Source: Escherichia coli O127:H6 str. E2348/69
Lineage (GTDB): Bacteria > Pseudomonadota > Gammaproteobacteria > Enterobacterales > Enterobacteriaceae
Length of the DNA: 64,000 nt
Assembly: GCF_000026545.1 (NCBI RefSeq)
Contig: NC_011601.1
Strand: one strand, 5' to 3'
Numbering within the stretch: position 1 is the stretch's first letter; the number at the start of each line of letters is the position of its first letter. Below the pieces are notes generated by a model that was not told the DNA's origin, made no database searches, and worked only from the letters and a program-made list of their open reading frames with translations. Below, piece after piece: positions 39,144 to 55,689 of this stretch. A program made the position numbers and the translations under genes.

Positions 39144-39162
39144 TCAGCTGATATCTCATTGA

Positions 39163-39193
39163 CCCCTTATCCAAACGGATAAGGGGTTTTTTT
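39163..39193 (+). terminator. Rho-independent terminator after pckA
   Basis: ccccttatcc-aaac-ggataagggg followed by ttttttt. Confidence 0.85.
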
Positions 39194-39252
39194 ATATCTA
39201 ATTAGCTACCAATATGTACACTTATAATTATCAATAGACCGCAGGATGCATT

Positions 39253-39569
39253 ATGTTCACCTTTATTGAACTACAAGGATTTAGCAAACGCCGCCAGTTA
39301 TTGCTACCTGATAAGTAGTTCCGGGCTTTTCAGGAACTACTCATTCAAGATCCCACTGCCGGTGACATTATCGCAGGCACAGGCAGTTTTAGAAAAATTC
39401 GCTGGAACCGTTCTGGAATGGGGAAACGGGGTGCATTCGGATAATTTATTACAACGTAACACGCAATGGCCGAATTTATCTGGCGTTGATTTATCCTAAA
39501 AATGAACAGGATGATTTAACAGAAGAACAAAGAAAGGCATTGAAACTATTGTCCGAGAAGCTGCTTTAA
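39253..39569 (+). pseudogene. Disrupted RelE/ParE-superfamily (HigB-2-like) toxin gene: in-frame TAG at codon 22 plus a -1 frameshift
   Basis: Frame 1 from ATG 39253 reads MFTFIELQGFSKRRQLLLPDK* (TAG at 39316-39318) and resumes FRAFQELLIQDPTAGDIIAGTGSFRKIRWNRSGMGKRGAFG*. A different frame from about 39432 reads CIRIIYYNVTRNGRIYLALIYPKNEQDDLTEEQRKALKLLSEKLL*. Together these resemble a roughly 105-aa HigB-2-type toxin (GTGxxRKxR...GKRGGxRxIYY motifs, recalled from memory). The total span is 317 nt, i.e. 318-1. Confidence 0.6.
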
Positions 39570-39627
39570 TGTTGAAGCTCCACAAATTCCACCATGGCCG
39601 AAATGCCAACGGAGGCATTGAAAACAG

Positions 39628-39924
39628 ATGAAAGATGAATTATTTGCTGATCTTCTTGCCAGCGCAGAAGAAATGGTACGCATCGAAAAGGGTGAAGAAA
39701 CGCCTGAACCAGAGCACGTCCATACTTTTAGCGAAATCGATGTAAAAGCGATCCGTGAAGCAACGGGTTTACGTCAGCAAGATTTTGCTGTCGCCGTAGG
39801 GGTAAGTTATGACCTGGTCAAAAGCTGGGAAACCAAACGCCGTCAGCCTACCGGAGCACCCCGAAAATTGCTCCTGCTTTTGCAAGCGAATCCTTTCATT
39901 ATCAATCAATTGAAAACAATCTAA
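39628..39924 (+). CDS. HTH (XRE-like) antitoxin-type DNA-binding protein, HigA-2-like, 98 aa, apparently intact
   Basis: ORF 39628..39924 (+), 98 aa: MKDELFADLLASAEEMVRIEKGEETPEPEHVHTFSEIDVKAIREATGLRQQDFAVAVGVSYDLVKSWETKRRQPTGAPRKLLLLLQANPFIINQLKTI; GGAGG ribosome-binding site 12 nt upstream; HTH segment LRQQDFAVAVGVSYDLVKSWE; lies directly downstream of the toxin remnant. Confidence 0.7.
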   Translation: MKDELFADLLASAEEMVRIEKGEETPEPEHVHTFSEIDVKAIREATGLRQQDFAVAVGVSYDLVKSWETKRRQPTGAPRKLLLLLQANPFIINQLKTI

Positions 39925-50478: not shown

Positions 50479-51180
<702 letters not shown>

Positions 51181-51238
51181 AGCCTCGATGATGGGCGTAT
51201 TATAACCAACTAAAATAGTCAACTATTAGGCCATTACT

Positions 51239-51814
51239 ATGATCCGTATTTCCGATGCTGCACAAGCGCACTTTGCCAAACTGCTGGCAAATCAGGAAGA
51301 AGGGACACAAATCCGCGTATTTGTGATTAACCCTGGCACGCCTAACGCTGAATGTGGTGTTTCTTATTGCCCGCCGGACGCTGTGGAAGCCACCGACACC
51401 GCCCTGAAATTTGACCTGCTGACCGCGTATGTTGATGAGTTAAGCGCTCCTTACCTGGAAGATGCAGAGATCGATTTTGTTACCGACCAGTTGGGTTCGC
51501 AGCTGACGCTGAAAGCGCCTAACGCCAAAATGCGTAAAGTGGCTGACGATGCGCCGCTGATGGAGCGCGTGGAGTATATGCTGCAATCACAGATCAACCC
51601 ACAGCTTGCTGGTCACGGTGGTCGCGTTTCGCTGATGGAAATCACCGAAGACGGTTACGCCATTTTGCAATTTGGCGGCGGCTGTAACGGTTGTTCCATG
51701 GTCGATGTAACGCTGAAAGAGGGGATCGAGAAGCAGTTGCTGAACGAATTCCCGGAGCTGAAAGGTGTACGCGATCTCACCGAACACCAACGCGGCGAGC
51801 ACTCTTACTACTAA
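51239..51814 (+). CDS. nfuA: Fe-S cluster carrier protein NfuA, 191 aa
   Basis: ORF 51239..51814 (+), 191 aa; C-terminal Nfu CxxC motif (GGGCNGCSM). Confidence 0.95.
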
Positions 51815-52001
51815 GTTCTCTCCTCTTTTGTCGATTGCCCGATGTGACGCTAAAGCGTCTTATCGGGCCTGTACGTTGCACGAGAGTCTGACATTAGCGC
51901 AGAATTACCTCAGCAAATCCAATCTCTTCGTTTCCCCACGATAATATGACCAACCTCTCATAATTTAAATTTACCCCGCTCTGGTGATTCTCAAGCACGT
52001 A

Positions 52002-52017
52002 ATGTTACCCGTATCAT
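52002..52017 (+). promoter_or_regulatory. GntR operator-like site 1 in the gntT regulatory region
   Basis: atgttacccgtatcat resembles the GntR operator (ATGTTACCCGTATCAT-type); assignment from memory of gntT regulation. Confidence 0.5.
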
Positions 52018-52142
52018 TCCCATGGGCACCAAACACACTCATAACATCTGACTACACTAACTCGTTTTAGGGGTCATCAGCCGTGGTGCCGTAACATCTC
52101 TGTTCCCAGTTGGGACAACCAGGATTTTCCGTCAGAAACCTG

Positions 52143-52158
52143 ACGTTACCCATAACAA
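52143..52158 (+). promoter_or_regulatory. GntR operator-like site 2 in the gntT regulatory region
   Basis: acgttacccataacaa, second copy of the GTTACCC core, about 20 nt upstream of the gntT ATG. Confidence 0.45.
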
Positions 52159-52177
52159 ATTAAAGGCCAGGTAAATC

Positions 52178-53494
52178 ATGCCATTAGTCATTGTTGCTAT
52201 CGGTGTAATCTTGTTATTACTCCTGATGATCCGCTTCAAAATGAACGGTTTCATCGCTCTCGTCCTCGTGGCGCTTGCTGTTGGATTAATGCAAGGAATG
52301 CCGCTGGATAAAGTTATTGGCTCCATCAAAGCCGGTGTCGGCGGAACGCTCGGTAGCCTTGCCCTGATCATGGGTTTTGGCGCAATGCTGGGCAAAATGC
52401 TGGCAGACTGCGGTGGCGCACAACGTATCGCCACCACGCTGATTGCTAAATTTGGTAAAAAACACATCCAGTGGGCGGTGGTACTGACCGGTTTTACCGT
52501 TGGTTTTGCCCTGTTCTATGAAGTGGGTTTCGTGCTGATGCTGCCGCTGGTGTTTACCATCGCGGCTTCCGCGAATATTCCACTGCTGTATGTTGGTGTA
52601 CCAATGGCGGCTGCACTGTCTGTGACCCACGGCTTCCTGCCACCGCATCCGGGTCCGACTGCGATTGCCACCATTTTCAATGCCGATATGGGTAAAACCC
52701 TGCTGTACGGTACTATTCTGGCAATCCCGACCGTTATTCTCGCCGGTCCGGTTTACGCTCGCGTGCTGAAAGGTATCGATAAGCCAATCCCGGAAGGTCT
52801 GTACAGCGCGAAAACCTTCAGCGAAGAAGAGATGCCAAGCTTTGGCGTCAGCGTCTGGACTTCTCTGGTGCCGGTTGTGCTGATGGCGATGCGTGCAATT
52901 GCCGAAATGATCCTGCCGAAAGGTCACGCTTTCCTGCCGGTGGCGGAGTTCCTCGGTGACCCGGTAATGGCAACGCTGATTGCCGTGCTGATTGCTATGT
53001 TCACCTTTGGTCTGAACCGTGGTCGTTCAATGGATCAGATTAACGACACGCTGGTTTCTTCCATCAAAATCATCGCGATGATGCTGTTGATCATCGGTGG
53101 TGGCGGTGCGTTCAAGCAGGTGCTGGTAGACAGCGGCGTGGACAAATACATTGCTTCCATGATGCACGAAACCAACATTTCTCCGCTGCTGATGGCCTGG
53201 TCGATTGCCGCCGTACTGCGTATCGCGCTGGGTTCCGCAACCGTTGCGGCAATCACTGCGGGGGGTATCGCGGCACCACTAATTGCAACGACGGGTGTTA
53301 GCCCGGAACTGATGGTTATTGCGGTTGGTTCCGGTAGTGTGATTTTCTCTCACGTGAACGATCCGGGCTTCTGGCTGTTCAAAGAGTACTTTAACCTGAC
53401 TATCGGCGAGACCATCAAGTCCTGGTCGATGCTGGAAACCATTATCTCGGTGTGCGGTCTGGTAGGCTGTCTGCTGCTGAATATGGTGATTTGA
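52178..53494 (+). CDS. gntT: High-affinity gluconate:H+ symporter GntT, 438 aa
   Basis: ORF 52178..53494 (+), 438 aa; GntP-family permease (MPLVIVAIGVILLLLLMIRFKMNGF...). Confidence 0.95.
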   Translation: MPLVIVAIGVILLLLLMIRFKMNGFIALVLVALAVGLMQGMPLDKVIGSIKAGVGGTLGSLALIMGFGAMLGKMLADCGGAQRIATTLIAKFGKKHIQWAVVLTGFTVGFALFYEVGFVLMLPLVFTIAASANIPLLYVGVPMAAALSVTHGFLPPHPGPTAIATIFNADMGKTLLYGTILAIPTVILAGPVYARVLKGIDKPIPEGLYSAKTFSEEEMPSFGVSVWTSLVPVVLMAMRAIAEMILPKGHAFLPVAEFLGDPVMATLIAVLIAMFTFGLNRGRSMDQINDTLVSSIKIIAMMLLIIGGGGAFKQVLVDSGVDKYIASMMHETNISPLLMAWSIAAVLRIALGSATVAAITAGGIAAPLIATTGVSPELMVIAVGSGSVIFSHVNDPGFWLFKEYFNLTIGETIKSWSMLETIISVCGLVGCLLLNMVI

Positions 53495-53604: not shown

Positions 53605-55689
53605 CTACTTCTTCTTCGCTGCCGCTCTGCGCCGTCTGTCCAAATCCTTCAGCAACTTGTTCACGCCATCATCGGCAAACATCGTCTCAAGCGTTGCGGA
53701 AAGCTTGCGTCGCCAGTTTTTGTACTGGTAGCTGGTGCCAGGAATATTTACCGGTTCGGCCATATCCAGCCAGTCTTCTGGCTGAAGCCCTAACAGAGCA
53801 CTGTTACTATCAGCGATATAACGTTGCAAACCACGATTAAGCATCGGCGTCATCGACATTAACGATGCCTTATGCCCCGCACGTTTTGGCAGGCAACCAT
53901 GTTTATGCAGTGCATCCAGCAACCCTTGCTTCGCCAGTTCGCGATCCTGATACAGACCGCGCAATACCACTTCATCCGGGTACAGCCCCAGCGTTTTACC
54001 CAGTGTTAAATCCCCGCTCTCCCAGTAGCCACGCAGTGTAGGCAGGTCGTGTGTCGCCGCAACCGCCATCGACTGCTCCGGATACGCTTTCGGCGCGCGG
54101 AATGTCTTCTCGTGGTCGCTTTCGAAATAGAGCACTTTGTAGGAGTACACACCGCTGCTGCGCAGTTTACCGACAATCTCTACCGGTACAGTGCCGAGGT
54201 CTTCACCAATCACCATGCAGCGATGGCGCTTACTTTCGAGTGCCAGAATCGAGAGCAGATCATCTACCGGATAGTGAACATACGCGCCCTGATCTGCCGT
54301 CTCGCCATACGGTATCCACCACAAACGCAGCATCGACATCACGTGATCAATTCGTAATGCGCCGCAGTTTTGCATATTGGCACGCAACAGCTCGATAAAC
54401 GGTTCATAGGCACGCGCGGTGATGATATGCGGGTCCATTGGCGGCAATCCCCAGTTCTGCCCCAACGGGCCGAGGATATCCGGCGGCGCGCCAACCGACG
54501 CTTTCAGGCAATACAGTTCACGGTCGCACCAGGTTTCTGCCCCACCTTCTGCTACACCAACGGCCAGATCACGATACAAGCCAATCGGCATTTCATAGCC
54601 CTGGCTTATCTCCCAGCAGGCGGCAAACTGGCTGTAAGCCAGCCACTGCAACCAGAGATAAAAATCGACGTCATCACGATGTTCTTCGCAGAACTGGCGC
54701 ACTTCTGGTGAATCCACGTTCTGATACATCTCTGGCCATGCTGGCCAGCCCCAGCGCATTTCGTCCTCTTTCACTTGCTGGGCATGTAGCGCATCAAAGG
54801 CTGCCTGCCAGAACAGGCTGTCGCCCTGCTCTGCAACAAACTGGCGAAACGCGGTCATCTGCTCATCATCACGTTGCGCGAAACCTTTCCACGCCATTCG
54901 TAATGCTGTCATTTTTAGGGTGGTAACCGTGGAGTAATCAACCCAGTCGGCATCCCGCGCCTGTTGCAGCGTCTGTTGCGTGGTCGGCAACTTCCACCAG
55001 GCCAGAGCCTCTTCGCTAAGATGGAAATCTTCAACGGCGTTAACGTCGATATAAATCACATTCAGCCAACGGCGAGAAGACGGGCTATACGGGCTGGCAC
55101 TTTCCGGATTTGCCGGATAGAGCGCATGAATCGGGTTCAGACCGATGAACGACCCGCCACGTTTTGCCACATCCACCAGCATCGCTTTGAGATCGCCAAA
55201 ATCCCCAATACCCCAGTTTTTTTCCGATCGCAGCGTATAAAGCTGAACGCAGGCACCCCACAGCTTTTGTTTGTTCAGCAACGCCTGCGGTTCGTAACAG
55301 CGTTTCGGGGCGACAATCACCCGGCAATGCGCGCGCTGGTCGTCCTGGGTGAGTATCAGCGTGTGATAACCTTCCGGCAGCTTCGTCGGTAGATTGAACG
55401 CTTTGCCCCCCGTTACATGGCCTTTGTACTGCGTTCCTTCTTCGGTGGTCAGCAGCCAGCTATATTCGCCGCTGCCCTCCACCACCATCGGCATTTTTTT
55501 GCCGCTGGTATAAACCATGACATTCGGGACTGGTGTTACCGCCACTTTCGTGGCGGTACGTTGATGCATCGCGTCAAGCAAACGCCGTTTGGTTTCGGCG
55601 CTAATCGACTGCGGTTTACCGTGGGCATTGATGTAATTGGGGCTAATCCCCGCCGCCAGCGCGGCATTATCCAGACGTTTGCTTTCCAT
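53605..55689 (-). CDS. malQ: 4-alpha-glucanotransferase (amylomaltase) MalQ, 694 aa
   Basis: ORF 53605..55689 (-), 694 aa. Confidence 0.96.
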   Translation of the reverse strand: MESKRLDNAALAAGISPNYINAHGKPQSISAETKRRLLDAMHQRTATKVAVTPVPNVMVYTSGKKMPMVVEGSGEYSWLLTTEEGTQYKGHVTGGKAFNLPTKLPEGYHTLILTQDDQRAHCRVIVAPKRCYEPQALLNKQKLWGACVQLYTLRSEKNWGIGDFGDLKAMLVDVAKRGGSFIGLNPIHALYPANPESASPYSPSSRRWLNVIYIDVNAVEDFHLSEEALAWWKLPTTQQTLQQARDADWVDYSTVTTLKMTALRMAWKGFAQRDDEQMTAFRQFVAEQGDSLFWQAAFDALHAQQVKEDEMRWGWPAWPEMYQNVDSPEVRQFCEEHRDDVDFYLWLQWLAYSQFAACWEISQGYEMPIGLYRDLAVGVAEGGAETWCDRELYCLKASVGAPPDILGPLGQNWGLPPMDPHIITARAYEPFIELLRANMQNCGALRIDHVMSMLRLWWIPYGETADQGAYVHYPVDDLLSILALESKRHRCMVIGEDLGTVPVEIVGKLRSSGVYSYKVLYFESDHEKTFRAPKAYPEQSMAVAATHDLPTLRGYWESGDLTLGKTLGLYPDEVVLRGLYQDRELAKQGLLDALHKHGCLPKRAGHKASLMSMTPMLNRGLQRYIADSNSALLGLQPEDWLDMAEPVNIPGTSYQYKNWRRKLSATLETMFADDGVNKLLKDLDRRRRAAAKKK

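Follow-up and report, generated by a model that had tools for sequence, protein, structure and literature searches.

The spacer upstream of gntT in enteropathogenic Escherichia coli E2348/69 raises the question of whether the two short repeats that it carries are operators of the gluconate repressor GntR, and whether gluconate-inducible control of the gene is intact. From their sequence, the repeats can be regarded with high confidence as the already-characterised GntR operators of gntT, and the locus as an ordinary, intact sugar switch of a kind already known. The window, meaning the whole stretch of 64,000 nucleotides (64 kb) that was analysed, was found to be 100% identical to E. coli E2348/69 across 11,847 bp, and positions 51815-52177 correspond exactly to the intergenic spacer between nfuA and gntT. 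The ORF following the spacer scored 931 bits with the NCBIfam equivalog model NF011560 (cutoff 744), which identifies it as gntT, and it carries this annotation in genomes matching the window; malQ and malP are located downstream of it on the minus strand. The GntT and NfuA proteins of the window are those of K-12 (dN of 0 for both genes). The spacer is framed by the following features:

51239-51814, plus strand: nfuA, the upstream neighbour of the spacer, identified by its NCBIfam model
51837-51868, plus strand: REP-type hairpin directly 3' of the nfuA stop codon, GCCCGATGTGACGCT / AGCGTCTTATCGGGC
52178-53494, plus strand: gntT, the regulated gene, encoding the high-affinity gluconate transporter; 438-amino-acid ORF with its ATG at 52178

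The single REP-type hairpin is an inverted repeat with 15-nt arms (87% complementary) and matched the REP-derived Rfam family naRNA4 below threshold, at 36.7 bits where the gathering score is 59.5. It is likely to form the 3' end, or a stabiliser, of the nfuA transcript and to stand outside gntT control.

The initial annotation had recorded two 16-bp elements about 140 bp apart upstream of gntT and had likened them to GntR operators. Both were found exactly as written, their starts separated by 141 bp:

52002-52017, plus strand: GntR operator O1, ATGTTACCCGTATCAT, with 1 mismatch to the consensus
52143-52158, plus strand: GntR operator O2, ACGTTACCCATAACAA, with 3 mismatches to the consensus, ending 19 nt before the gntT ATG

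The published GntR operator consensus is ATGTTACCCGTAACAT (PMC10450161). The 7-mer GTTACCC is by itself weak evidence for operators, with nine copies in the 64 kb against 3.9 expected, and nine or more copies in 4 of 100 shuffles. A scan with the full motif was far more selective, as O1 and O2 are the sole sites within three mismatches of ATGTTACCCGTAACAT in the 64-kb window, where three matches (counting the palindromic reverse of O1) compare with 0.30 expected. When the scan was extended by 50 kb in the source genome, the only additional GntR sites were an overlapping pair before gntK. The last six bases of O1, TATCAT (52012-52017), constitute the -10 hexamer of the promoter. In a cell-free study, a 16-bp E. 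coli GntR operator conferred repression by GntR that was relieved by gluconate, and the TATCAT of that operator doubled as the -10 (10.1101/2023.01.10.523462). O1 is letter for letter the operator used in that assay (10.1101/2023.01.10.523462), which, together with the matches to the consensus, bears out the earlier likening of the elements to GntR operators. Every property checked for an operator was present, namely a match to the consensus, a location in the promoter or leader, a tested sequence (in the case of O1), conservation among orthologues, and a cognate gntR in E2348/69.

The leader contains further half-site-like repeats, ACTCATAACA at 52037 and TAACATCT at 52042 and 52092, which were considered as operators and rejected with 6-7 mismatches per 16 bp to the consensus. 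The exact 8-mer TAACATCT occurs twice in the leader (52042-52049 and 52092-52099, 50 nt apart), and its second copy lies within CCGTAACAT, which matches the right half of the GntR consensus perfectly but has no left half. This second copy is not kept in K-12 and, because it is not conserved there, is probably due to chance.

It is possible to ask whether the two sites act chiefly through the paralogue IdnR (GntH) instead of GntR. GntH is reported to control the GntR-regulated GntI genes negatively and GntR to recognise IdnR sites (PMC4052901), which indicates that the two proteins share operators. At the MG1655 gntT promoter, however, GntR gave more than 5-fold repression once gntR was restored, so that knockout or restoration of gntR alone shifts this promoter by more than 5-fold (PMC13386637). 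A main role for IdnR is accordingly regarded as very unlikely, and GntR is retained as the repressor acting at O1 and O2.

The remaining elements of the promoter were located as follows:

51945-51960, plus strand: CRP-like site TATGAccaaccTCTCA, with 2 mismatches to TGTGA-N6-TCACA
51988-51993, plus strand: -35 hexamer TTCTCA from a promoter scan, with an 18-bp spacer to the -10 TATCAT
52024, plus strand: inferred transcription start, 7 nt after the -10 hexamer
52162-52177, plus strand: ribosome-binding region AAAGGCCAGGTAAATC, abutting the ATG of the 438-amino-acid ORF

Control of gntT by cAMP-CRP is named in the title of the original K-12 study (Peekhaus & Conway 1998). The CRP-like site reads TATGA-N6-TCTCA, and its centre would fall at -71.5 if +1 is 52024; class I CRP-dependent promoters have such sites centred near -61.5, -71.5 or -82.5. 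Across 32 Enterobacteriaceae sequences its TGA...TC.CA bases vary hardly or not at all. The block GGTGATTCTCA around the -35 is conserved across genera, and the ribosome-binding region is almost invariant across them. With +1 set at 52024, O2 starts at +120 and would occupy about +120 to +135 inside the transcribed leader. We take O2 to be the documented downstream operator of gntT at about +120; the 1998 abstract of Peekhaus and Conway reportedly places one operator over the -10, the other at +120 and CRP at -71, and the sequence fits these positions. No intrinsic terminator was detected in a scan of 51700-52300, and premature intrinsic termination in the leader is therefore not supported.

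The gene for the repressor lies outside the window. It is intact in E2348/69, 32 kb from gntT and adjoining gntK-gntU, and encodes a full-length GntR of 331 amino acids (equivalog score of 776 bits against a cutoff of 433). Since gntR is full-length in the source genome, the earlier suggestion that gluconate-inducible control is intact is a fair reading. Both operators, the -35 and -10 hexamers, the CRP-like site and the ribosome-binding region of the window are also identical to those of MG1655, and this agreement with K-12 likewise points to a switch that would still respond to gluconate.

The identity of these blocks can be judged against the divergence of the spacer around them. The spacer is present in 5424 of 5426 complete E. 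coli genomes and falls into two alleles, with 919 of 5425 records at least 95% identical to the window and 4506 at 80-90%. The alignment of the window with K-12 has 57 substitutions over 359 bases and, in addition, 4 gap columns. The comparison with the K-12 gntT promoter, which the initial annotation had proposed as a check, showed both 16-mers to be identical and to have the same 141-bp spacing; the 32 operator bases carry no substitution where about 5 would be expected. A single substitution was found in the block at ~51929-51994, where the CRP-like site, the -35 and a stretch rich in A and T are located, and a single one between O2 and the ATG. The others cluster in the leader and 5' of the CRP-like site. 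The Jukes-Cantor divergence of the spacer is 0.178, compared with a dS of 0.186 for nfuA and 0.088 for gntT. As the spacer drifts at about the neutral rate, the comparison of the window with K-12 amounts to a natural footprint, and the presence of two deep alleles within one species makes this a clean footprint of every functional block in the promoter.

Selection or a swapped promoter was considered as the cause of the 16% spacer divergence and was set aside as unnecessary, the divergence being equal to the synonymous divergence of nfuA. Neutral drift in an old haplotype could explain the divergence. Of the positions that distinguish the window from K-12, E. albertii has the window base at 41 and the K-12 base at 7, so that the common K-12-type spacer looks derived. 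These observations bear on a further reading, in which the operators are intact and regulation nevertheless differs quantitatively from K-12, given a minority, ancestral-looking spacer that is about 16% different. The minority spacer alters the leader RNA and the DNA between the two operators, and such a difference would be in keeping with the clustering of substitutions in the leader and 5' of the CRP-like site, with the split between 919 and 4506 records and with the E. albertii counts. Against this, every functional block that can be recognised is unchanged, the leader retains its closing helix (described below), and the spacer has diverged at the neutral rate of neighbouring nfuA, so no selection need be invoked. 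A quantitative difference is considered unlikely.

Other differences in the vicinity were also observed. The gntT coding allele (52178-53494) is nearly private, being matched at 99% or more in 3 of 5425 records, with the others at about 97.6-98%. As the spacer allele occurs in hundreds of genomes, this implies a recombination breakpoint near the start of gntT. A patch of malQ (53800-54200) has 87-94% identity to K-12, compared with 96-100% in the surrounding genes, and is probably another recombination tract. Further away in the window, positions 39145-39923 form an insertion of roughly 780 bp relative to K-12 between pck and envZ. It holds a 98-amino-acid helix-turn-helix ORF (39628-39924; Pfam HTH_31 and HTH_3) and an upstream ORF from 39254 that stops after 21 codons, the out-of-frame continuation of which looks like a decayed toxin gene. 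The insertion is possibly a degraded toxin-antitoxin cassette.

Conservation beyond E. coli was followed in 80 loci, each from a different species, obtained in a search for GntT, and comparisons were limited to those whose upstream sequence was long enough. All 32 Enterobacteriaceae sequences have an unchanged O1, located 168-182 nt before the ATG; the genera concerned are Escherichia, Salmonella, Citrobacter, Enterobacter, Lelliottia and Klebsiella, together with Kluyvera, Kosakonia, Pluralibacter, Phytobacter, Trabulsiella and others. The O2 core CGTTACCCATAACA is invariant in 31 of the 32, and overall the two operators are essentially invariant across about 30 Enterobacteriaceae genera or species. 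Among the Enterobacteriaceae orthologues sampled, the start of O2 is always 34-35 nt from the ATG. The earlier statement that O2 lies within about 20 nt of the start codon is correct (19 nt), although its description as unusually close does not hold, the same distance being found in K-12 and in all sampled Enterobacteriaceae.

In one Pseudocitrobacter metagenome-assembled genome (L025), O2, about 35 nt upstream of gntT, has lost 1 bp from its right half (ACGTTACCCAT-ATAAAT). No other Enterobacteriaceae locus sampled has a damaged O2, and the deletion could be an assembly error.

This conservation bears directly on whether the two sites resemble operators only by chance, or are decayed remnants, and play no part in regulation in E2348/69. 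The weak enrichment of the GTTACCC core (9 against 3.9 expected) is the kind of signal that chance could produce. Full 16-mers, on the other hand, occur only here in the window against 0.3 expected; not one of the 57 spacer substitutions affects them, about 30 genera or species share them without change, and O1 is a functionally tested operator. Conservation effectively refutes such a reading, as judged from aligned sequences, and it is so improbable that it need hardly be considered further.

In Erwiniaceae, Yersiniaceae, Pectobacteriaceae and Budviciaceae a different, tandem layout was found, in which two gntT operators have their starts 14 bp apart and overlap into a 30-bp palindrome, for example ATGTTACCGGTATCATGATACCGGTAACAA. 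The genera with this layout include Pantoea, Erwinia, Mixta, Yersinia, Serratia, Rahnella, Dickeya, Brenneria, Sodalis and Pragia. No operator was found near the ATG in the tandem-layout gntT loci (L028-L079); the tandem pair lies about 162-133 nt before the ATG in L038 and about 141-112 nt before it in L033. The split form with separate O1 and O2 appears to be confined to Enterobacteriaceae among the loci compared. Overlapping GntR sites have been described as functional at gntKU and as common for GntR in gamma-proteobacteria (PMC4052901).

The mechanism proposed for the window begins with a sigma-70 promoter (-35 TTCTCA, -10 TATCAT) that would be aided by cAMP-CRP bound about 71 bp upstream. 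The LacI-family repressor GntR would shut this promoter through two imperfect palindromes, O1 and O2. GntR on O1 would sit over the -10, excluding RNA polymerase and blocking the open complex, a step that is proposed because O1 covers the -10 in its geometry and because of the cell-free result. O2, about 120 bp downstream and just before the ribosome-binding site, would strengthen repression either by cooperating with O1 in a DNA loop or by blocking the elongating polymerase. Gluconate bound to GntR would then cause both operators to be released. The sequences themselves show the identity with validated operators, their extreme conservation, an intact promoter with its CRP-like site and an intact gntR in the source genome; we infer the binding of GntR in E2348/69, as we do the start at 52024 and the mode in which O2 contributes.

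A repression loop is the usual model for an operator at a promoter accompanied by an auxiliary operator downstream. Peekhaus and Conway are said to have described, in 1998, cooperative binding in K-12 and a need for both operators for full repression. The O1-O2 spacings found among orthologues are 133, 136, 139, 140, 141, 143, 144, 147 and 65 bp, which span every phase of a 10.5-bp turn, and helical phase is therefore not conserved. The alignment of GntR with LacI covers LacI residues 4-316, and with only about 14 residues beyond the aligned region GntR would lack a LacI-type C-terminal tetramerisation helix. A rigid loop between O1 and O2 is not favoured, given a spacing that is not phase-conserved and a repressor without this helix. 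It is possible that O2 acts as an elongation roadblock or through a flexible, GalR-like contact. An O2 that is locked to the start codon, with O1 at a distance that is out of helical phase, calls into question a strict looping model for GntR.

The position of O2 inside the leader also led us to consider the RNA. With +1 at 52024, the gntT leader comprises 52024-52177 (154 nt), and three elements of predicted secondary structure were distinguished in it:

52025-52090, plus strand: leader 5' domain, with a 7-bp closing helix of GGCACCA (52025-52031) and UGGUGCC (52084-52090)
52101-52117, plus strand: small leader hairpin, UGUUCC ... GGGACA, from the minimum free energy (MFE) fold
52130-52145, plus strand: leader hairpin, CGUCAG-AAAC-CUGACG, from the MFE fold, its 3' arm overlapping the first three O2 bases

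The fold of the whole leader is no more stable than those of shuffled sequences (z = -0.85), and global stability thus offers no argument for leader structure. Evidence for the closing helix comes from comparison, as it was recovered by RNAalifold on 29 orthologous leaders and, by pair counting, 88% of cells are paired and 6 of its 7 pairs have changed on both sides. One of its pairs is C-G in the window and U-G in K-12, so that the helix is kept in both alleles. Single-sequence MFE folds closed the domain with at least 5 terminal pairs in 29 of 29 orthologues, compared with 16% of dinucleotide shuffles. Taken together, the three tested leader helices have 78% of cells paired, compared with at most 47% in slid-partner controls. 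Within the otherwise variable interior of the 5' domain, AUAACA, C..CUA and AUCAG are conserved motifs. RNAalifold returned no structure for a MAFFT alignment of the 5' domain alone, a result explained by misalignment of the distant rows. The small hairpin at 52101-52117 is moderately supported as a predicted element (84% paired, with changes on both sides in 3 of 6 pairs). For the hairpin at 52130-52145 the comparative signal is weak; its GTCA...TGAC arms recur in most genera in a shifting register, with 58% paired in a fixed register, and it may or may not form.

An Rfam scan of 51000-53000 (E <= 1) returned no leader family and gave only the sub-threshold naRNA4 match on the REP hairpin. 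A covariance model recovered its 18 training sequences with 3 weak extra matches and 1 weak match on the opposite strand. The domain was detected at Escherichia, Citrobacter, Salmonella, Enterobacter, Lelliottia and Kosakonia-type loci. The model found nothing in the tandem-operator loci of Erwiniaceae, Yersiniaceae and Pectobacteriaceae, and the modelled 5' domain would be either lineage-restricted or too diverged for detection outside Enterobacteriaceae.

In Escherichia sp. ESNIH1 and Pseudescherichia vulneris (L054 and L055, 100 nt upstream of gntT), O1 and O2 are kept 65 bp apart and most or all of the leader-domain segment is missing, which makes this Pseudescherichia-type locus a natural deletion variant.

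It could be argued that O2 is conserved mainly for a role in the mRNA leader, as an A/U-rich single strand and hairpin arm by the ribosome-binding site, with possible effects on translation, stability or small-RNA docking. Its rigid 34-35 nt to the ATG, where the distance to O1 varies (133-147 bp, and 65 bp in one lineage), is what such a role would lead one to expect, and so are the near-invariance of the block from TGACG through the start codon and the inclusion of the first three O2 bases in the 3' arm of a predicted hairpin. As nothing varies between TGACG and the start codon, this block shows no covariation. O2 is, however, a recognisable GntR palindrome, one of two such sites in the 64 kb, and in the original gntT operator work mutagenesis reportedly showed that both sites matter. 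RNA and DNA roles are also not exclusive of each other. A leader role as the main reason for the conservation of O2 is considered quite unlikely, and O2 is read here as an operator.

The conserved helix that closes the 5' end of the gntT leader is undescribed. It pairs +2 to +8 with +61 to +67, closing a domain of roughly 67 nt, and would leave about one unpaired 5' nucleotide if +1 is 52024. Where decay depends on the 5' end, a single unpaired 5' nucleotide would protect the mRNA. That the covarying leader domain is an undescribed cis-acting RNA tied to the split-operator layout is put forward tentatively, as an idea that we regard as doubtful. Its role would be in gntT mRNA stability or translation, or in the docking of a small RNA or protein. 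If true, gntT, whose product is a transporter known to be under selection in the gut, would have a further, post-transcriptional level of control. Loss-of-function mutants of gntT have been repeatedly selected in E. coli Nissle in mice, which makes fine control of gntT expression biologically relevant.

With regard to known systems, 5'-terminal stem-loops stabilise enterobacterial mRNAs, the ompA leader being an example. The gntT leader resembles this type in leaving about one unpaired 5' nucleotide (with +1 at 52024), and differs from it in that the predicted structure would be a long-range closing helix round a variable interior and not a simple hairpin. The lac O1-O2/O3 and gal OE-OI loops are similar to gntT in combining a LacI-family protein, an operator at the promoter and an auxiliary operator downstream of the start. 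They are unlike it in that GntR lacks the LacI C-terminal tetramerisation segment and the distance between the gntT operators is not phase-conserved; looping at gntT is plausible but not supported.

The E. coli gntKU promoter has the same repressor and the same 16-bp motif as gntT, arranged as overlapping tandem operators that in the source genome are ATGTTACCGATAACAG and CAGTTACCCGTAACAT, with starts 13 bp apart. At Enterobacteriaceae gntT, in contrast, the sites are split by about 140 bp and one of them is inside the leader.

The closest comparison is the gntT region of K-12 itself (Porco et al. 1997; Peekhaus & Conway 1998), which has the same gene with nfuA upstream and malQ downstream, and in which the operators, their 141-bp spacing, the -35 and -10, the CRP-like site and the ribosome-binding region are those of the window. 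The substitutions and gap columns that set the two apart fall in non-functional spacer, of which the window carries a minority E. coli allele. All of the features flagged at gntT have already been described for K-12 and are carried unchanged by E2348/69, and the finding confirms an intact textbook sugar switch in one enteropathogenic E. coli strain, its value being one of annotation and not of discovery.
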